40,098 nt of DNA from contig CANMWZ010000040.1 of NCBI GenBank assembly GCA_947501605.1, forward strand, positions 1 to 40,098, read 5' to 3'. Below, piece by piece: positions 30,589 to 40,090 of the stretch. The stretch is from Planctomycetota bacterium (GTDB lineage Bacteria > Planctomycetota > UBA1135 > UBA2386). The translations under genes were made by a program, and so were the position numbers. Within the stretch, counting starts at the first letter, position 1. Each line of letters begins with the position of its first letter. The notes beneath the pieces were generated by a model. The model searched no databases. It saw only the letters and a list, made by a program, of their open reading frames with translations, and had not been told where the DNA came from.

Positions 30589-31677
30589 ATGCTGCATCCC
30601 CGACTGCTCCTGACCGGAGTCCTCGTCCTCCTTGCAAGTTGCGCCGTCCCCGAACGCGCGACCGAGCCCGCACCGGATCCGATCGCGGTGATCGTTCAAG
30701 AGGAGCTCGCGCGCCAGAAGATCCCTGCGGCGAGCGTCGCGATCATCGAGCACGGGCGTCTGGTGCATGCCGAGGGCTACGGCTTCGCAAATCTGGAGCA
30801 CCAGGTCCCCGCGACCGCCGAGACGATCTACCAGTCGGGCTCGGCGGGGAAGCAGTTCACTGCAGCGCTGGTGCTGCTGCTCGCGAACGACGGGCGTTTT
30901 CATCTCGACGATCCGATCGCGAAGCACCTCCCGGGCACGCCACCGAGCTGGGCAAGCGTCACGATCGGCCAGCTCCTACACCACATCTCGGGGCTCGCCG
31001 ATCCTTACGAGAAGCTCGACTTCGCGCGCGACTACACGGAAGCGGAACTGCTCGCGATCGACGGGCAGATCCCGTTGCTCTCCGAGCCCGGCACCAAGTT
31101 CTCCTACTCGAACATGGGCTACCACGTGCTCGGCTTCCTCTGCTCGCACGTCGGCGGTGTCTTCTACGGCGAGCAACTCGCGCAGCGGGTCTTCGCGCCG
31201 GCCGGAATGAAGACGACGCGCATCATCAGCGACCGCGCGCTCGTCCCGCATCGCGCGGCGGGCTACGAGCTCGAGAACGGTGAGCTTCGCAACCAGAGCT
31301 GGATCTCGCCGAGCCTCAACACCACCGGCGACGGCAGCCTCTACCTGAGCGTCCTCGACTTCGCCGCCTGGGACATTGCGCTCACGCGCGGGACGCCGAT
31401 CCCCGAAGACATCCAAGCGGTCATGCGGACGCCGGCGCGCCTCGCGAACGGGAAGCTCTCGCCCTACGGCTGCGGCTGGAGCGTGCAACCCATCGAGGGG
31501 CGAGAGGCCATCTCGCACGGGGGCGCCTGGCAGGGGTTCACGACGTTCTACCTCCGGTTGCCGAAGGAGGAGCTCTCCGTGATCGTGCTCACGAATCTCG
31601 CGGGCGCCGACCCCGGGAAGATCGTGCAACGCATCCTCGCGGAACGGCTGCCGGCCCGCGCCGACGGTGGCCGCTGA
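30589..31677 (+). CDS. Serine hydrolase (beta-lactamase/AmpC family) lipoprotein
   Basis: Lipobox LLASC; SxxK in SGSAGKQF; LLHHISG; YSN; HGGAWQG. Confidence 0.9.
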   Translation: MLHPRLLLTGVLVLLASCAVPERATEPAPDPIAVIVQEELARQKIPAASVAIIEHGRLVHAEGYGFANLEHQVPATAETIYQSGSAGKQFTAALVLLLANDGRFHLDDPIAKHLPGTPPSWASVTIGQLLHHISGLADPYEKLDFARDYTEAELLAIDGQIPLLSEPGTKFSYSNMGYHVLGFLCSHVGGVFYGEQLAQRVFAPAGMKTTRIISDRALVPHRAAGYELENGELRNQSWISPSLNTTGDGSLYLSVLDFAAWDIALTRGTPIPEDIQAVMRTPARLANGKLSPYGCGWSVQPIEGREAISHGGAWQGFTTFYLRLPKEELSVIVLTNLAGADPGKIVQRILAERLPARADGGR

Positions 31678-31942
31678 GGCCGACGGCTTGCACGGAGCTT
31701 GGCCCAAGGGGAGTCCGCTGGCGCGCGCAGAGCTGATGTTGATCGCCGCGAACCTGCACGGCTACTACACCGCCCTCGAGACGCTCTGCCAACGAGTGGC
31801 TCGGCAACTCGACGAGGTGGTTCCGCAAGGGGCGAGCTGGCACGCGGACTTGCTGTCGCAGATGCAGATCGAGGTGCCTGGACTTAGTCCCCGCGTGGTG
31901 CCGACGGAGGTCGTCGGCGAGCTACACGAGCTGCAGAAGTTC
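31667..31942 (+). pseudogene. Truncated HepT-like HEPN ribonuclease toxin
   Basis: AANLHGYYTALE.L..RVA..LD..VP.G.SWH..LL.QM....P is HepT-like. Similarity stops at LHELQKF, where FRH..R..Y is expected, and the N-terminus is also short. Confidence 0.72.
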
Positions 31943-32006
31943 CAAGTGTTCCCAGCCGATCCAGATTCAGAACGGACGGTACCGGCGCCTCCTCTGGCAG
32001 CCAGTT

Positions 32007-33179
32007 CTACGGGACCAGCGCCGGAGCGAGCGCAACACGGAAGCCGTTGATGAACAACGCTTCGCTCGGGTGACTGGAGCGGCGCCACGCAGATCGCGCG
32101 AAGAACGAGTCGTGGAGCCAGCTGCCACCACGAATGACCCGGTTCGTGTTCCCGCTGGTGCCATAGGGATCCGAGACCCCTGCGGTCGGGTAGTTGGGCG
32201 CGCCATCCCACGAGTCGAGGCACCACTCGCGGACGTTGCCCATGAGGTCGTGCAGGCCCCACGCGTTGGCGGCGTAGCTGCCGACGTTTGTCGTCCCGCC
32301 GATGCTGCAGTTCTGCCCCGTATGGTGGTTCTGGCCATGGTTTGCCTGCGCACAGGTCAGGGCCGCGCCCACGGAGTACTCGGTCGCCGTCCCGGCGCGG
32401 CAGCAGTACTCCCACTCAGCCTCCGTCGGCAGGCGGTACTGATAGCCCGCCGGCACGCGTCCCGCCGCACGCTCGGACACCGTCAGTGACGCGCAGTAGG
32501 CCATCGCGTTGTTCCACGTCACCTGCTCCACCGGCCGCTGCGGCCCGACGAAGGCGGACGGATTGTTGCCCATGACCGCCTGATACTCGGATTGGGTCAC
32601 CTCGTACCTTCCGATCCAGAACGGCTGTGTGATCGTCACAGGATGCACCGGGCGCGCGTCCGCCTGGTTGAAGTAAGGCGCCACGTTGAGTGGCGCTACA
32701 CCGGAGCCCATCGCGAACGTACCCGCCGCAATCGGCAGCATGTTGGGCAGCACGTCTGCGATCGTCAGCATCAGCTCGTTGTCCGAGAACGTGAGCGTGC
32801 TGGTGGACAGCGCCAGATCGACCGACTGCAGATCGAACGTGAGCCCGACGAGCAGTGGGTCATTGGGCAGGGCGACACCGCGCGTGAGGTGACCGCTCGC
32901 GTCGAGCACCCCGACGAACATCTCCTGGAAGTTCGATGGATCGATGCGCACGAGGCCCTGCACGGTGAACCCGGGGATCTGCAGCGACTGAATGCCCGGG
33001 TATTGCGGCACCGTGTAGGCGAACAGGTAGACGTTGCCGGCAGCGGCCGTCGGATATGTCAGCGAGAACGCTGCCGTCTGTCCCACCGCAACAGGCGTCA
33101 CGGACTGCAACGTGCGGTTGTTCTGCGCAATGGCGAACGAAGCGATGGAGAGGAAAGCGAACGCGGACTGGCACTTCAT
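32007..33179 (-). CDS. Secreted formylglycine-generating enzyme (FGE-sulfatase/SUMF1) domain protein
   Basis: GTFAMGS, YEVTQ, PVEQVTW, RLPTEAEWEY, NAWGLHDLMGNVREW, RGGSW and GFRV; signal peptide; start moved to MKCQ. Confidence 0.9.
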   Translation of the reverse strand: MKCQSAFAFLSIASFAIAQNNRTLQSVTPVAVGQTAAFSLTYPTAAAGNVYLFAYTVPQYPGIQSLQIPGFTVQGLVRIDPSNFQEMFVGVLDASGHLTRGVALPNDPLLVGLTFDLQSVDLALSTSTLTFSDNELMLTIADVLPNMLPIAAGTFAMGSGVAPLNVAPYFNQADARPVHPVTITQPFWIGRYEVTQSEYQAVMGNNPSAFVGPQRPVEQVTWNNAMAYCASLTVSERAAGRVPAGYQYRLPTEAEWEYCCRAGTATEYSVGAALTCAQANHGQNHHTGQNCSIGGTTNVGSYAANAWGLHDLMGNVREWCLDSWDGAPNYPTAGVSDPYGTSGNTNRVIRGGSWLHDSFFARSAWRRSSHPSEALFINGFRVALAPALVP

Positions 33180-34273: not shown

Positions 34274-34504
34274 ATGCGCTCCCGCCTCTGCTTGCTCCCT
34301 CGGGTCCGTTCCTTCTCACTGCTCGTGTTGCTCGTAGCGTCGGCAACGAGTGCTGTGGCGCAGTGTGCTCTGCAGTGGCAGCAGGGGTCGTTGGTCGGGT
34401 TGCTGGCGCGCGCGCAGGTGATGTCGATCGAGCTCACGCCGCAGCTGACGGGCTCGGCGATCACGACTACCAATGCGATCGACTTCACGGTCGGGCAGTT
34501 CTGA
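34274..34504 (+). pseudogene. Internally deleted secreted-protein gene (signal peptide joined directly to the C-terminal module)
   Basis: Signal peptide and AQCALQWQQG run straight into SLVG....Q....TTNAIDFTVGQF; only 76 aa. Confidence 0.55.
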
Positions 34505-34573
34505 TTCGATCCTCATCCTGCATCGTCCAGAGACACAGCCGCTTCGATCCTCGATCGAGCACTTGATGCGCCG

Positions 34574-34730
34574 ATGACCGTTTCCGCGGAGCAGACCGTC
34601 GCGACGCTGCGTGCGCGGGCAAGCGTAGTGCGCGCGGCTCATCGGCTCGCTCGTCTGGGCCGGGTTCGGCGAACACAGTGACATCGATCTGGTGCTGCGC
34701 GGAGCCGATTCTTCGCGGGTCGCAGCGACG
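34574..34730 (+). pseudogene. Frameshifted minimal nucleotidyltransferase (MNT) antitoxin remnant
   Basis: The ATG at 34574 gives MTVSAEQTVATLRARA. A different frame from 34638 gives LIGSLVWAGFGEHSDIDLVLRG, the GS-x10-DxD Pol-beta motif. Confidence 0.68.
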
Positions 34731-34848
34731 AACTTTGCGCCGGATCCAAGCCACTCCGAATTGCAGACTCGGAAGATCGGGCTCGGTCCCTCCCGCCCGT
34801 ACGCCACACCGCGCACCCCGCATGACACACTTCGCGCGCCCCCACCTC

Positions 34849-34876
34849 TGGACACCGCGCGCAATCTGCCGATACT
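34849..34876 (+). promoter_or_regulatory. Candidate sigma70 promoter for the riboswitch leader
   Basis: TGGACA-N16-GATACT, placing a transcription start near 34883, just before riboswitch P1. Confidence 0.4.
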
Positions 34877-34884
34877 CCTCCTCA

Positions 34885-35010
34885 GCATCCAGACGGCCCC
34901 GCGGACAACCAACGGGCGGCCAACCTGCCGAGGAGCGGCAAGGTGGTAAGTCGAGGCCGAGTGGCCGAGACGATGCGCGCGGGCGAGTGTCCCGGCGAAC
35001 GAAGGCTCCT
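34885..35010 (+). promoter_or_regulatory. SAM riboswitch, SAM-I clan (SAM-I/IV-like)
   Basis: P1 GCATC (34885) / GATGC (34972); J1/2 core ATCCAGA; P3 GCC-AA-CC-TGCCG / CGGCA-A-GG-T-GGT followed by AA; P4 GGCC-gagt-GGCC; P5 hairpin at about 34978-34997; 3' GCTCCT (35005-35010) complementary to the P3 loop AGGAGC (PK-2). It lies upstream of an operon containing a MetK homologue. Confidence 0.82.
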
Positions 35011-35030
35011 GCGGCGCGCGTCGCCGCTTT
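35011..35030 (+). terminator. Putative riboswitch expression-platform terminator
   Basis: GCGGCG-cgcgt-CGCCGC-TTT immediately after PK-2 and before the RBS (GAGGA) and ATG at 35054; short U-tract. Confidence 0.5.
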
Positions 35031-35053
35031 GGGTGCATGCCGAGGAACTCAGC

Positions 35054-36817
35054 ATGTCCACCGCGAAGTCCGCAGCCGCTGCGACCCCGTCCCTGTCGAT
35101 CCGCGTCGACGGCGACAACCCCGACCACCACCTGTTCCAGAACCGCGGCACTTGGTGGATCCACTACACCGAGCACCGCGGCAACAAGAAGGAGCGCAAG
35201 CGCCAGTCGCTGAGGACGCGCGACGTCGTCGAGGCGCGCTCGGGGCGCGATGCGCTGTTTGCGCGCATGCGCGCCGGCGGGGCCTCGCTGGCCGAGGACG
35301 CGGCGCCGGGGGCGACACCATCGGCGGCCGGTCCGGCCGTCGCGAACGCAGCCCCACTCGCCGACCCCGCCCGCGCGCGTTCGCAACTGCTGCGTCCGCT
35401 CGGCCTCGAGGGCTGGGACGAACTCGAACCCGTCGTGCTCGCGTCGCTGTGCGCCGAGGCGCCGCTGCTCCTCGTCGGGCCGCACGGCAGCGCCAAGAGC
35501 TTCGCGCTCGAGCGCCTCGCGGCCTCGCTCGGTCTCCGTTTCCGCGCCTACAACGCCAGCCTGCTGCACTTCGACGACCTCGTCGGCATCCCGTTGCCCG
35601 ACGAGAGCGGCAAGGGGCTGCGCTACGTCTCGACGCCGACGTCGATCTGGGACGCCGAGGTCGTGTTCATCGACGAACTCAACCGCACCAGGCCCGAGCT
35701 GCAGAACAAGATCTTCCCGATCGTCCACGAACGGCGCGTGCAGGGCGTGTCGCTGACGGCGCTGCGCCACCGTTGGGCGGCGATGAACCCGCCCGTGCGC
35801 GAGGAGACGAGGCCCGGCGAGGCCAACTACCTCGGCGCCGAGCCGCTCGATCCCGCACTGGCGGATCGCTTCGCCTTCGTCGTCGAGGCGCCGTCGTGGG
35901 GCGAGTTGTCGACCGCGCAGCAGAAGCGCGTGCTGCAGGGTTCGCTGCGGCAGGGTGGGCAGCCGCTCGCCGACGTGAAGCCCTTCGTCGAACGCGCGCG
36001 GCGTTGGTTCTTGCTGCTGCGCGAGGCCGCGCCGGCACGCCTCGTCGACTACTTCGTGGCGCTCGAACAGCAGCGGCGCAGTGCGGGGGCCGTGCCCTTC
36101 TCGACGCGGCGCATGGCCATGCTGCTGCAGAACGCGCTCGCCGTGCAGGCTGCGCGCGCCGCGCTCGCTGAGGTCGCGGGCGGCGAGGTCGCCGTGCGCA
36201 CGGTCGACTGGGAGACCTCCGTCTGGCTCGCGTTCCTGCACGGCTCGCCGACGCTCGCCGAGACCGGGACCCTTGATCGCGCGGTGATGCGCGCCTTCCA
36301 CCGCCAGGCCTGGGCCGTGTGCGGCCTCGCCGAGGGCGATCCGTGGCGCGAACTGCTGACGATCGCCGATCCCGTCGAGCGCGCGCTGCGCGCCGTGGCG
36401 CTCGGACTCGTCGTCACCGACGAGCAGCTCGGCCAGCTCGTGGTCGACGGCGTCGAGAGCGTGGCCGTGCCGGCGCACCGCGATGCCACCGCGCTCGCGC
36501 TCTACCTCGCCGTGCATCGCGAACGCGCGTTGCCCGCGATCGCCGTCGAGTCGCTGGCGCAACGCATCGCGCGTGTGTTGGCACCGGTGCAGCGCGACGT
36601 CACGTTGCCGACTGCGCAGGCCGGGCTCGCGCGCGAAGTGGGCCAGCTCGAGGCCGAGGGCACGGGAAATCCCGCGCGCGACGCCTACGTGCGCAACTTG
36701 CTCGAGGCGCTGCTGCCCGACGGCTACGCGGGTACGTCGCCGCGTGAGGTGCGCGATCGCTTCGTGCGCCTGTGGGACCGGCTGCAGCTCGGCCTGCGCC
36801 TGGAGGTGGCCGCGTGA
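35054..36817 (+). CDS. MoxR/RavA-like AAA+ ATPase with an N-terminal arm-type DNA-binding-like domain
   Basis: Walker A GPHGSAKS, Walker B VFIDELNR, sensor AMNP and Arg finger LDPALADRF; N-terminal NPDHHLFQNRGTWWIHY...RKRQSLRTRDVVEAR; RBS GAGGA. Confidence 0.88.
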   Translation: MSTAKSAAAATPSLSIRVDGDNPDHHLFQNRGTWWIHYTEHRGNKKERKRQSLRTRDVVEARSGRDALFARMRAGGASLAEDAAPGATPSAAGPAVANAAPLADPARARSQLLRPLGLEGWDELEPVVLASLCAEAPLLLVGPHGSAKSFALERLAASLGLRFRAYNASLLHFDDLVGIPLPDESGKGLRYVSTPTSIWDAEVVFIDELNRTRPELQNKIFPIVHERRVQGVSLTALRHRWAAMNPPVREETRPGEANYLGAEPLDPALADRFAFVVEAPSWGELSTAQQKRVLQGSLRQGGQPLADVKPFVERARRWFLLLREAAPARLVDYFVALEQQRRSAGAVPFSTRRMAMLLQNALAVQAARAALAEVAGGEVAVRTVDWETSVWLAFLHGSPTLAETGTLDRAVMRAFHRQAWAVCGLAEGDPWRELLTIADPVERALRAVALGLVVTDEQLGQLVVDGVESVAVPAHRDATALALYLAVHRERALPAIAVESLAQRIARVLAPVQRDVTLPTAQAGLAREVGQLEAEGTGNPARDAYVRNLLEALLPDGYAGTSPREVRDRFVRLWDRLQLGLRLEVAA

Positions 36818-37362
36818 TCGCCGACGAACTCTGCTGCGATCTACCGCTCGGCCGCGATCCGCTCGACGCGTTCGCCAACATGTGCGTGCCGCCGCGCACG
36901 GTGGTGAAGTCGACGCAGGTCGCGATCTCGGGCCGCGTGCTGTTGTTCAGCATGCTGGGCGCGTGCCACCACCTCGGCCTCGTCGTGTCGAACCAGCTCG
37001 CCCAGGCCAAGGCCGAGGTCGAATCGCGCTGGGGCAAGCAGGTCGACGCGTTCCTGCAGGACGTCGAGGCGCGCGGCTACCTGGCCAACCGCGCCGAGGC
37101 CGAACGCACGCTCGCGTCGTGGCGCGGCCCAGTGATCGGTTCGCGGCCGCAACTCGGTCGCATGCCCGGGCCGACGCGCGCGATCTGCACCGACCTCGGC
37201 TTCGCCATCGCCGTGCTGGCGCGCGTGCACGGCAACCTACTGCTGCCGTCGCGCGCGCCGACCCTCACCTGGCCGCGCCTGTTCGACGTCGTGTTCGGCC
37301 TCGACGACGCGCGCGCCAACCACGTCCCTGCCTACGTCTATCCCGAACCGGAGCTGCGATGA
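36814..37362 (+). CDS. Hypothetical protein (182 aa), operon member
   Basis: GTG start overlaps the upstream stop (GTGA) with a GGAGGT RBS; its own stop overlaps the next ATG (ATGA); GC3-rich codon use. Confidence 0.75.
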   Translation: MIADELCCDLPLGRDPLDAFANMCVPPRTVVKSTQVAISGRVLLFSMLGACHHLGLVVSNQLAQAKAEVESRWGKQVDAFLQDVEARGYLANRAEAERTLASWRGPVIGSRPQLGRMPGPTRAICTDLGFAIAVLARVHGNLLLPSRAPTLTWPRLFDVVFGLDDARANHVPAYVYPEPELR

Positions 37363-38900
37363 ACTTCGTCGACGAACGCGCGCTCGACCCGCGCGCGCAG
37401 GAACTGCGGCGCCGCGTGCTCGAGGTCCTTCCCGCCGGCGGCTACCAGCTCGACCGACTCTTCCGCCTGCTCGACATCGAGGTCACCGACGAGGTCGAGA
37501 CCGCCGAAGTCACCGTCGGCCTCGTGTCGCGCATGCGCTTCAACCCGCGCTTCGTCGAACGGCACTGCGCCACCGACGAGCGCCTGTTCGTGCTCGTGCT
37601 GCACGAACTGCTGCACGTCGTGCTCGGGCACACGCGCCTGTTCCCGAAGCCGAGCTACGCGCACAACATCGCCTTCGACGCGGTGATCAACGCGATGATC
37701 GCGCGGCAGCATCGGGAACCGGAGTTCCTCGAACTGCTGCGCGAGGTCAACGCGTGGACCGACTTCCCGTCGCGATTGCTGCGGCCGGCGCCGGGCTGGC
37801 CCGAGAAGCCCGAGCCGATGCCGAGCGACGCGACGAAGGCCGAACGCGAACTACACGCCCGGCTCTACGGCAAGGACAGCAAGGACGTCACCTACCACGA
37901 GCTATTCGATCTGCTCGCGCAGTGCGTCGACGAACGTGCGCCCGGCCCCGCGCGCCTGCTCGGCGGCCACGGCCAGGGTGCGGGAGGCGAGGCGGACGGT
38001 GGTGGCACGAACGAGTTCTTCGACGGCGACGAGGCCGTCGACCCGACCTTGCGCGACGTGCTCGCGCGCATCGTGCGCGAATGGCCGGCACCCTTCCGCG
38101 AGCAGATGCTCGACCGCGGCCAGAAGGCGCACGACCTGCGGCTTCAGAGCGCGCAGCCCGCCGATGCGGCACTCGAACGCGCGCTACTCGAGTTCTTCGA
38201 ACGCGCGGGCATCGCCGCGCTCGCACGGCGCACGCGACTGCGCCGTACGACGGCGGAGCACACGTCGTGGTCGGTCGTGCCGCAGGGCGCGGACCGGCGC
38301 GGCCACGTGCGGACGTTGTGCCTCGGCCGCCCGCCGCTGTTTTGGGAGGCGCCCTCGACGCGGACCTCGCGCCTGCGTTCGCCGGTTCCGGCTGCGTTCG
38401 TGTACCTCGACGTCAGCGGCTCGATGGACCCGTACCTCGGCGCGCTGCGGTCGGCTCTGCGCAAGCCCGTGCGCGAAGGGGCTGCGCGCCTGTTCTCGTT
38501 CAGCACGATGGTCGCGGAGATCGACGTGCGCACGTTCGGCACGCGCGCGACGCGATCGACGGGCGGCACCGACGTCGACGCCGTGCTGCAGCACGTGCTT
38601 GCCCTTTCGGCACGCGAACGGCCGCAGCGCATCGCCATCGTCACCGACGGCTTCGTCGGCAAGCCGCGCGCCGACCACGTGCGCCAACTCGCGGCGCGCG
38701 GCATCGGCGTGCACGTGGCGCTGGTCGCCAATGGCCGCCGCGCCGATCTCCAGGCGATCGCGCAGCGCCTGGTCGAGCTGCCAGCACCGGCCTCGCGGCC
38801 GAGTCAGAACGTTTCCGCGCCTGCCACTGCACCGGCCCCGACCTCTGTCGCGGCAGCACCGCTTCCGACGCCGACTCCCGGCCAAGGCCCTTCTCGATGA
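37359..38900 (+). CDS. Putative metallopeptidase (HExxH, DUF2201-like) plus vWA domain protein, MoxR partner
   Basis: FNPRFV...LHELLHVVLGH...NIAFDAVIN; C-terminal vWA motifs YLDVSGSM, GGTD and IVTDG; true start is the ATG at 37359. Confidence 0.88.
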   Translation: MNFVDERALDPRAQELRRRVLEVLPAGGYQLDRLFRLLDIEVTDEVETAEVTVGLVSRMRFNPRFVERHCATDERLFVLVLHELLHVVLGHTRLFPKPSYAHNIAFDAVINAMIARQHREPEFLELLREVNAWTDFPSRLLRPAPGWPEKPEPMPSDATKAERELHARLYGKDSKDVTYHELFDLLAQCVDERAPGPARLLGGHGQGAGGEADGGGTNEFFDGDEAVDPTLRDVLARIVREWPAPFREQMLDRGQKAHDLRLQSAQPADAALERALLEFFERAGIAALARRTRLRRTTAEHTSWSVVPQGADRRGHVRTLCLGRPPLFWEAPSTRTSRLRSPVPAAFVYLDVSGSMDPYLGALRSALRKPVREGAARLFSFSTMVAEIDVRTFGTRATRSTGGTDVDAVLQHVLALSARERPQRIAIVTDGFVGKPRADHVRQLAARGIGVHVALVANGRRADLQAIAQRLVELPAPASRPSQNVSAPATAPAPTSVAAAPLPTPTPGQGPSR

Positions 38901-40090
38901 CCACGCCAACTCTCGTCCCCTCGCGCGCGGCCGTCGCCGCGCACCCCAGTGCCATCGCCGTGCAGCACGTGCACACGGCCGAATGGGTCTCGCCGGGCCA
39001 TCCCGATCGGCTCGCCGACGCGATCGCCGACCGCGTCGTGCGCCACGCCGTGGCCCTCGACCGCGAGGCCCTCGTCGGCGTCGAGGTGGCGTTGCACCGC
39101 CGCCGCGTATTCGTCGACGGCCGCATCGCCGCGCGCGGCATCGGCAATGCCGACGAGTGGCTGCCGCCGCTCGTGCAAAAGGTCTACGCCGAGGCAGGGC
39201 ACGGTGCTCATTGGGCGCCCGCGCCCGACGAACTCGCGATCGACCACGACCTTTGCCTCGACGACCTGAGTCGCGACGAACGCACGGCCCGCGGCGTCGC
39301 CGACGACCAGAACGTGGTGATCGGCTGGGCCGGTCGCGACGAACGCACGCGCTTCCTGCCGCCGGCGCACTTCCTCGCGGGCGAGCTCGGCGCCGCGGTG
39401 TGGCGCTTTCGCTGCGAGCACGCCGAGCACTTCGGCCCGGACTTCAAGCTGCTGCCGCAGCTCGACGAACTCACCGACGGCTCCCTGCGCTGGCGCCGCC
39501 TCGTGTTGTCGCTGCAGCACCGCGCCGACGTGGGCTACGAACGCCTACACCGCGAACTGCTGCCCGTGCTGCGCGCCGTGCTCGAGGCGCACGAACAGAA
39601 TGGCCTCGTCGGCGCCGCCTCGACGTTCGCCCCGCACGTCTTGCACTGCAACGGCGCGGGCTCGTTCGTGCTCGGCGGCCCGCTCGGGGACAACGGGCTG
39701 TCGGGCAAGAAGCTCGTGGTCGACCACTACGGCCCCGACGTGCCCATCGGCGGCGGCGCGATCTACGGCAAAGACCCGCACAAGATCGACCGCGCCGGCG
39801 CCGTTCGCGCGCGGCAATGGGCGGTGGATCTGCTGCAGCAGGAGCGAACGCGCGGCGTGCGCGAGGTGCGGACGAGGCTGTGCTGGTCGCCCGGCGACGC
39901 GGCCCCGAGTTTCGTCGAGGCCCAGACGCGCGACGCGGCGGGGCTGTGGCGGCGCGTGGCCGAGGACCAGCTGCCGCCGCGCGAGTGGTTTGCGATCGAA
40001 CGCGTGGTCGCGGAGTTGCTGGACCAGGGCGTCGACGCGTTCGCGGCGCCGGGTGCGAGTGGGTTCGTTCCGGGCGGGGTGTTGCCGTGA
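38897..40090 (+). CDS. Divergent methionine adenosyltransferase (MetK-like paralogue)
   Basis: TAEWVSPGHPDRLADAIAD, DQ, PDFK and GGPLGDNGLSGKKLVVDHYG...GGGAIYGKDPHKIDR; ATGA overlap with the upstream gene. Confidence 0.9.
   Translation: MTTPTLVPSRAAVAAHPSAIAVQHVHTAEWVSPGHPDRLADAIADRVVRHAVALDREALVGVEVALHRRRVFVDGRIAARGIGNADEWLPPLVQKVYAEAGHGAHWAPAPDELAIDHDLCLDDLSRDERTARGVADDQNVVIGWAGRDERTRFLPPAHFLAGELGAAVWRFRCEHAEHFGPDFKLLPQLDELTDGSLRWRRLVLSLQHRADVGYERLHRELLPVLRAVLEAHEQNGLVGAASTFAPHVLHCNGAGSFVLGGPLGDNGLSGKKLVVDHYGPDVPIGGGAIYGKDPHKIDRAGAVRARQWAVDLLQQERTRGVREVRTRLCWSPGDAAPSFVEAQTRDAAGLWRRVAEDQLPPREWFAIERVVAELLDQGVDAFAAPGASGFVPGGVLP

Follow-up and report, generated by a model that had tools for sequence, protein, structure and literature searches.

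The class of SAM riboswitches closest to the RNA described here is SAM-I/IV (RF01725; Weinberg 2010, PMC2864571; env87 structure 4L81, PMC5393176, PMC6890682), whose marks, as worded in the accessible part of PMC6890682, are an undivided P2, the lack of PK-1 and the presence of P4. The leader that we find at 34885..35010 of a 40,098-nucleotide stretch of DNA from a Planctomycetota bacterium (contig CANMWZ010000040.1; the whole stretch is called the window below) shares with this class, as far as the accessible portions of these sources describe it, the SAM pocket, the undivided P2, the absence of PK-1, and P4, P5 and PK-2. With SAM-IV (RF00634) it has the pocket, PK-2 and P5 in common but differs in carrying P4 and no PK-1, and with SAM-I (RF00162) it shares the pocket and P4 but carries PK-2 and neither a kink-turn P2 nor PK-1, by what the accessible descriptions of the two classes state; the divided P2 of SAM-I and SAM-IV is absent from the window.

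The aptamer itself is ordinary for the SAM-I/IV class. The less expected parts of the locus, namely the anti-P1 strand, the small protein domain and the DNA site upstream, lie outside the segment covered by the earlier note, and a literature search that had most subscription papers outside its scope returned no description of the small protein, the site or the platform. Comparison with homologues points to a riboswitch of a known class with a well-supported translational platform, and this riboswitch may control a regulator and not only enzymes.

Class and anatomy of the aptamer

The elements of the aptamer are the following.

34885..35010, plus strand: SAM-I/IV aptamer, from Rfam, fold and covariation
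34885-89/34972-76, plus strand: P1, present in the sequence
about 34895-34916, plus strand: P2
34919-47, plus strand: P3, with the core GCCAACC (34919-25) / GGUGGU (34942-47)
34950-71, plus strand: P4, present in the sequence
about 34977-97, plus strand: P5, from the Rfam match and fold
34931-36/35005-10, plus strand: PK-2, formed by L3 with the 3' tail

The element is assigned to the SAM-I/IV riboswitches, a known class, with RF01725 as its best match in Rfam. In E-value mode the match extends over 34880-35013 and covers the whole model at 26.2 bits (E 0.067), below the gathering cut-off of 41.1 bits, so that the comparison with the Rfam models envisaged by the earlier note sustains the assignment over the full length and falls short of it in score. 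At the gathering threshold the whole window gives no Rfam match, and routine annotation would therefore miss the element. The score lies under the cut-off because P2, P4 and P5 are longer than in the SAM-I/IV class and the GC content is high, and it has no bearing on the structural class of the RNA. Neither RF00634 nor RF00162 was reported in the Rfam scan of the window, and among 136 candidates scored in the 4.6-Mb genome the element is the sole RF01725 match (E 0.10). The 92-nt core from P1 to P4 folds at z -2.42, with 3 of 200 shuffles equally good, and three longer fragments fold no better than shuffles (z 0.27, -0.96 and -0.91).

The small domain of about 60 aa at the start of the ORF at 35054 served as a handle for collecting homologous leaders. 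It is present in 6 of 61 relatives, in 22 of the phylum's 401 genomes, where four matches are weak, and in 9 of 60 genomes of a second phylum, that of a Verrucomicrobiales MAG; it was also found in 574 of 599 metagenome candidates, 80 being kept, and in 992 clusters at 50% identity, of which 728 match at E up to 1e-10. Of 114 small-domain loci, 93 have an upstream sequence that parses as a SAM-I/IV core; where 300 nt or more of upstream sequence is available, this is the case in 90 of 98. After removal of L068, L069 and L111, whose parses were doubtful, the other 90 were dereplicated at 80% to yield 35 leaders. When 20 homologous loci were scanned with RF01725, 14 matched at E up to 1 and two reached the cut-off (L015 with 44.2 bits and L023 with 41.1 bits); leaders of this type are mostly under the Rfam cut-off and so unannotated.

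Nineteen named pairs were followed through an alignment of 32 of the 35 leaders, three long ones being omitted. Paired cells make up 93.9%, two-sided changes are seen at 11 of the 19 pairs, and 0 of 500 shuffles reach the observed level, a count that is not a probability as the leaders are related; slid controls give 33-44%. P4 is present in all 35 leaders. PK-2 forms 4-8 Watson-Crick pairs in 35 of 35, as 26 distinct helices, and its own pairing is better than cross pairing in 34. Covariation in the homologues thus supports P1-P5 and PK-2, and the pairing of L3 with the 3' tail put forward by the earlier note was borne out by it, as was, together with RF01725, the call of a SAM-I/IV class RNA with P4, P5, PK-2, a short P2 and no kink-turn (the predicted fold of P2 has a small internal loop near its tip only). 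The claim of a new hybrid is withdrawn, since the set of P4, P5 and PK-2 with a short P2 and no kink-turn already defines the known class in the accessible parts of PMC6890682 and PMC2864571.

The bases attributed to the SAM pocket are all found in the window, where P1 has its A-U pairs, J1/2 its G-A and P3 its internal loop; the full-length RF01725 match keeps every one of them, and across 32 leaders they hardly vary, if at all. That the RNA binds SAM we infer from this conservation and from its class. A ligand other than SAM, or a non-switching relic, might be suspected from the Rfam score and from downstream genes that in most homologues have no link to SAM, yet such an RNA would hardly keep its pocket bases nearly invariant and its switch helices covarying, and we regard it as extremely improbable.

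The P3 pair described by the earlier note as a compensatory swap is indeed C-G in the window and covaries, being C-G in 20 and G-C in 15 of the 35 dereplicated leaders, but it is not unusual, as C-G is the consensus of the RF01725 model. By eye we counted C-G in 18 of the 38 rows examined of the 2010 alignment, in the accessible supplement of PMC2864571, where one row closely resembles L009 and L017; the crystallised RNA (4L81), by the accessible part of PMC5393176, differs from the window in having G-C. The suggested PK-1 between GAC at 34904 and GUC at 34950 had to be given up, because P4 already has GUC 34950-52 as its 5' strand, so that the two pairings clash. A pairing of L2 with J3/4 of at least three pairs is possible in one of the 35 leaders only, and PK-1 is not conserved.

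The expression platform

Unlike the leader, the Rfam model ends at PK-2 and is without the anti-P1 strand and the upstream site. Downstream of PK-2 we find the following.

35011..35027, plus strand: spacer hairpin, variable in sequence and not a terminator here
35028..35036, plus strand: switching strand (anti-P1), 9 bp with 34885-93, excluding P1; from duplex energy and covariation
35032..35059, plus strand: start-region hairpin, covering the Shine-Dalgarno sequence 35042-46 and the ATG at 35054 when the switching strand is free

The switching strand begins at the three T that follow the spacer hairpin and is complementary to the 5' side of P1 and to J1/2. In the window its duplex amounts to -11.1 kcal/mol, as against -4.9 kcal/mol for P1. 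Across the 35 leaders the value is -14.8 kcal/mol for the own duplex, -10.4 for cross-leader duplexes and -8.4 for shuffled ones, the own duplex being better than cross in 33 leaders and beating shuffles in 31. These leaders carry 13 different 5' 9-mers, and the own downstream region pairs best with the own 5' end. Compensatory changes are seen at several positions of the duplex; position 6 is A-U in 18 leaders, C-G in 12 and U-G in 3, and position 7 is G-C in 24, A-U in 6 and C-G in 2. In 30 of 35 leaders the anti-P1 strand has a second partner in the start region, with a duplex of -6 kcal/mol or better, and the start region is more open in the forced anti-P1 state than in the forced P1 state in 29 of 34. 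In the window itself the difference in start-region accessibility is small (0.31 OFF versus 0.41 ON, in a model that leaves the pseudoknot outside), and the ON state keeps a short hairpin over the RBS.

Based on the covariation of anti-P1 and on the pairing and opening of the start region we propose that the leader is a SAM-I/IV riboswitch acting as a translational OFF switch, a reading to which we assign a probability of roughly 0.78. The anatomy, its covariation and the mutual exclusivity of the helices are observed in the leader, and it is the direction of switching and the coupling of the downstream genes that we infer. In the absence of SAM the strand at 35028-36 would capture the 5' side of P1 and J1/2, the start region would be more open and the small-domain/ATPase ORF would be translated, with the three overlapping genes downstream coupled to its translation. 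With SAM bound, P1 and PK-2 would be stabilised and the freed strand would close the hairpin over the Shine-Dalgarno sequence and the AUG. As the platform is defined by natural compensatory changes, the switching mechanism of a SAM-I/IV riboswitch becomes directly testable.

Of the GC hairpin with TTT reported in the earlier note, the structure stands, at 35011-27 and followed by three T, but its role as a terminator does not. An intrinsic terminator was taken to be a GC hairpin with at least five U within 8 nt; by this measure the window hairpin fails, and no terminator is called anywhere in 34300-35300. A PK-1-bearing variant acting by SAM-induced termination at this hairpin would draw on the stability of the hairpin and on L093, L181 and L184, where the switching strand is the 5' arm of a terminator-like hairpin with a T-run. 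T-runs of at least five are seen, however, in only 3 of the 35 leaders, the T-run being three in the window and at most three in 31 leaders; the three T of the window pair with J1/2, and PK-1 could form in a single leader. Termination is thus very unlikely here, and L093, L181 and L184 use the same switching logic with a different output.

The start at 34943 in the ORF track, suspected in the earlier note of being wrongly extended, was rejected: this GTG lies inside P3, and of the 35 leaders 10 have it in frame and 5 with an open frame, which makes 35054 the likelier start.

The small domain and the operon

The genes behind the leader are as follows.

35054..36817, plus strand: ORF of 587 aa, joining the small domain and a MoxR-type AAA+ ATPase (AAA_5, E 2e-9) in one frame; separate genes in G300 and L034
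35054..35272, plus strand: small domain of beta3-alpha1 type with a weak likeness to integrase arm-binding domains (DUF6538-like), encoded on its own in most homologues
36814..37362, plus strand: hypothetical protein whose gene overlaps the stop of the ORF before it; without a Pfam family at cut-off, a homologue in G300
37359..38900, plus strand: metallopeptidase-like and vWA protein (VWA_CoxE at cut-off, DUF2201_N weak)
38897..40090, plus strand: divergent MetK paralogue (31% identity with the MetK of the genome itself)

In most loci the small gene is not fused and its neighbours are unrelated, so that the conserved target of the leader is the small domain. The 83 downstream ORFs belong to mixed families, and the idea of a conserved metabolic gene behind the leader was dropped. 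An origin from a mobile element is likewise unsupported, there being no phage match and, among 6 viral-contig loci, one with a riboswitch core.

No Pfam family reaches its cut-off in the small domain. Against DUF6538 the window domain scores 15.9 bits, the cut-off being 27, and in the family the best E for DUF6538 is 7.5e-7, with 73 of 100 members at E up to 0.01. The structural model (pLDDT 82) has three strands and one helix, and its top three structural matches are integrase arm-binding domains (Z 4.5, 4.4 and 4.0; rmsd 2.2-2.9 over 47-50 residues), at Z values no higher than those of unrelated folds ranked just below. The best Foldseek E is 0.99, the nearest named Atlas clusters score 0.92-0.93, a sequence search found no solved relative, and a search of NCBIfam found no family. 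Structure, DUF6538 and Atlas all point, if weakly, to an integrase arm-type domain. With the arm domains of the lambda, HPI and Tn916 integrases and with DUF6538 its model has three strands and one helix in common; it differs from them in having no recombinase domain, in a conserved additional N-terminal segment, NPxHHLWxN, and in being single-copy and riboswitch-led. L009 (from 1498) and L102 have another extension, of 229 aa, fused to the small domain, and some 750 nt upstream L009 carries a second riboswitch with the upstream DNA site. The small genes of L175, L176, L177 and L179 have neither riboswitch nor site, and the gene just before them we take to encode ribosomal protein L28.

The block of ATPase, vWA protein and MetK-like protein also occurs in G107, G395, G270 and G300, with the riboswitch ahead of it in the latter two, and in L006, L008 and L033 metK follows the small gene. 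That the operon ends in a MetK paralogue, and that metK follows the small gene in these three loci, we count in favour of a SAM riboswitch. The paralogue keeps most nucleotide- and metal-binding motifs and differs from the genome's MetK at a Glu and a Gln position, which we presume to bind methionine in the E. coli enzyme, and it could use another substrate. Contigs from an RNA library span leader and operon, but they cover the DNA upstream to a similar depth as well and are therefore no proof of expression.

Around the operon, 34573-34710 looks like the remains, with a frameshift, of a gene that we take to encode a minimal nucleotidyltransferase (MNT-type antitoxin). The RNA-library contigs carry a similar, longer copy of it about 100 nt past the window end, so that related sequence lies on both flanks of the operon. 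A sequence of about 65 nt at 34713-34780 has copies of 78-84% identity on contigs C55 (four) and C78. Further upstream, a 127-aa ORF at 31667-32050, presumably a HEPN toxin fragment of a toxin-antitoxin pair, has cassette-like neighbours (AAA_14/DUF4143, beta-lactamase-family and FGE-sulfatase-like genes).

An upstream DNA site and its possible reach

Ahead of the leader lie two further elements.

34821..34829, no strand assigned: operator-like site, consensus (T/C)ATGACAC(A/G), the A at 34822 being 49 nt before the -10 box
34849..34876, plus strand: sigma-70-like promoter (TGGACA, 16 nt, GATACT), the only one in 34300-35300, with 0.0 expected from shuffles

The promoter would place the transcript start just before P1. 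In the 90 nt ahead of P1, 32 of 33 leaders and 87 of 89 loci carry ATGACAC or TATGACA, as against 9 of 1455 control windows, the motif having been chosen by inspecting the same loci that were counted. Among loci added later, 4 of 5 leaders with a riboswitch from the second phylum have it, as does 1 of 3 leaders from family f34. In the 33 leaders 29 sites are forward and 4 reversed; the forward ones lie 38-40 nt before the -10 box in 20 of 29 cases and 48-49 nt in 5. Both orientations, and a spacing that changes by about one helical turn, argue for a protein site on DNA. That the motif is a mere upstream stop codon was considered and rejected, as its TGA closes a frame of at least 80 codons in 9 of 27 forward cases and the motif also occurs reversed. 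In one RNA-library contig, a strain variant, 34810-34859 has 7 substitutions and 3 indels around the promoter and none in 34821-29.

Whether the small domain is the DNA-binding regulator that recognises this ATGACAC site is, on the sequences compared here, an even call; a regulator-operator pair is plausible, though unproven. Non-palindromic sites are typical of the integrase arm-type fold. In the accessible part of PMC4239095, MetJ, MetR, SahR and SamR control metK and methionine genes through upstream DNA sites, as the small domain would here; their sites are tandem Met boxes or palindromes of 15-24 bp, whereas here the site is a short non-palindrome, and MetJ, MetR and SahR are themselves ligand-sensing proteins, whereas here the RNA upstream of the regulator's own gene would sense. 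Should the small domain bind the site, both a function and a target sequence could be given to a family of several hundred clusters.

Tentatively, a circuit of two tiers can be drawn in which the riboswitch gates a minimal activator derived from an integrase arm-binding domain. As SAM falls, the small protein would be made, would bind single ATGACAC sites lying ahead of the -35 box by one to three helical turns and would raise transcription from its own promoter, from that of metK and from a small number of further SAM-riboswitch promoters; in the window the activator domain would be fused to the ATPase of a MoxR/vWA/MetK-like module. If true, the riboswitch would control metK indirectly, via a domesticated integrase domain.

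A looser form of the site is found at the metK promoters of 10 of 23 carrier genomes and 1 of 27 non-carriers (background, 43 of 476 windows); with the second metK of the non-carrier G286 added the comparison is 10 of 23 versus 2 of 27 (p 0.006), and within family f34 it is 7 of 9 carriers versus 2 of 9 others (p 0.057), the genomes being kin and not independent in both. The forward metK sites lie at 38, 39, 49, 49, 59 and 59 nt. In genome-wide pattern searches metK is one of 3 matches in G254, and metK and the cassette are two of 5 in G359 and two of 10 in G084. The site also stands at promoters of secondary SAM riboswitches in carriers (L009, L263, L265, L266). Even so, activation through the ATGACAC site by the small domain at low SAM has its counter-examples, among them the window's own metK, which has no site, and would seem doubtful rather than probable.

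These counts also bear on a reading that falls somewhat short of even odds, namely that the site belongs to another, more widespread factor or promoter element and that the small domain binds, for example, RNA or a protein partner. Sites occur where the small gene was not found, in phase at the second metK and metH of G286 (93% complete) and at two riboswitch promoters of G004 (84% complete); the carriers G449 and G451 lack the site at their own small-gene promoter; 8 of 14 small-domain loci of the second phylum have neither a riboswitch core that was found nor a well-placed site; being a carrier has no effect at ahcY (4 of 20 versus 2 of 8) or at metH-like genes (7 of 20 versus 3 of 8); and the fold matches are weak (Z 4.0-4.5). 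Such a factor would, on the other hand, have to account for the presence of the site at nearly all small-gene promoters, for its absence from the upstream position at the riboswitch promoters of the non-carriers G238, G221, G302 and G103, and for the carrier difference at metK. G449 and G451 are also without the site at metK, which fits a joint loss.

It is unlikely that the small domain, once bound to the site, acts as a repressor or does no more than regulate its own gene, without a true regulon. The window's genome, with the 8-mer seen 10 times and expected 8.2 times, has no genome-wide excess of the motif and no phase peak, and its metK, ahcY, metH and second riboswitch are without the site, as this reading would have it. 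The site lies, however, 5' of the -35 box, at 38-40, 48-49 or 59 nt from the -10 box, and placement upstream of the -35 box at such spacings is activator geometry; a metK repressor made at low SAM would, moreover, make little physiological sense. As for the size of the regulon under the two-tier circuit, a large one was rejected. Besides the lack of motif excess and of an effect at ahcY and metH, counts of the 8-mer in 40 genomes failed to separate carriers from others, and totals of site plus box were 10, 5, 1, 30 and 3 in five carriers and 5, 27, 22, 9 and 6 in five non-carriers.

Some neighbouring observations are added here. A second SAM-I/IV-like riboswitch, without an upstream site, lies on the minus strand of G000:C4 near 147776; it was not among the matches of the genome-wide Rfam search, and the gene after it is similar to the Cys/Met PLP enzymes that follow L252 and L261. 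At L143 (G452) a divergent gene, which we take to encode an ArsR-family regulator (SahR-like), lies beside metK, whose promoter is without the site. In L256 (G103) and L260 (G302) SAM-I/IV leaders stand directly before DUF3293 genes, and in G103 a second metK follows.
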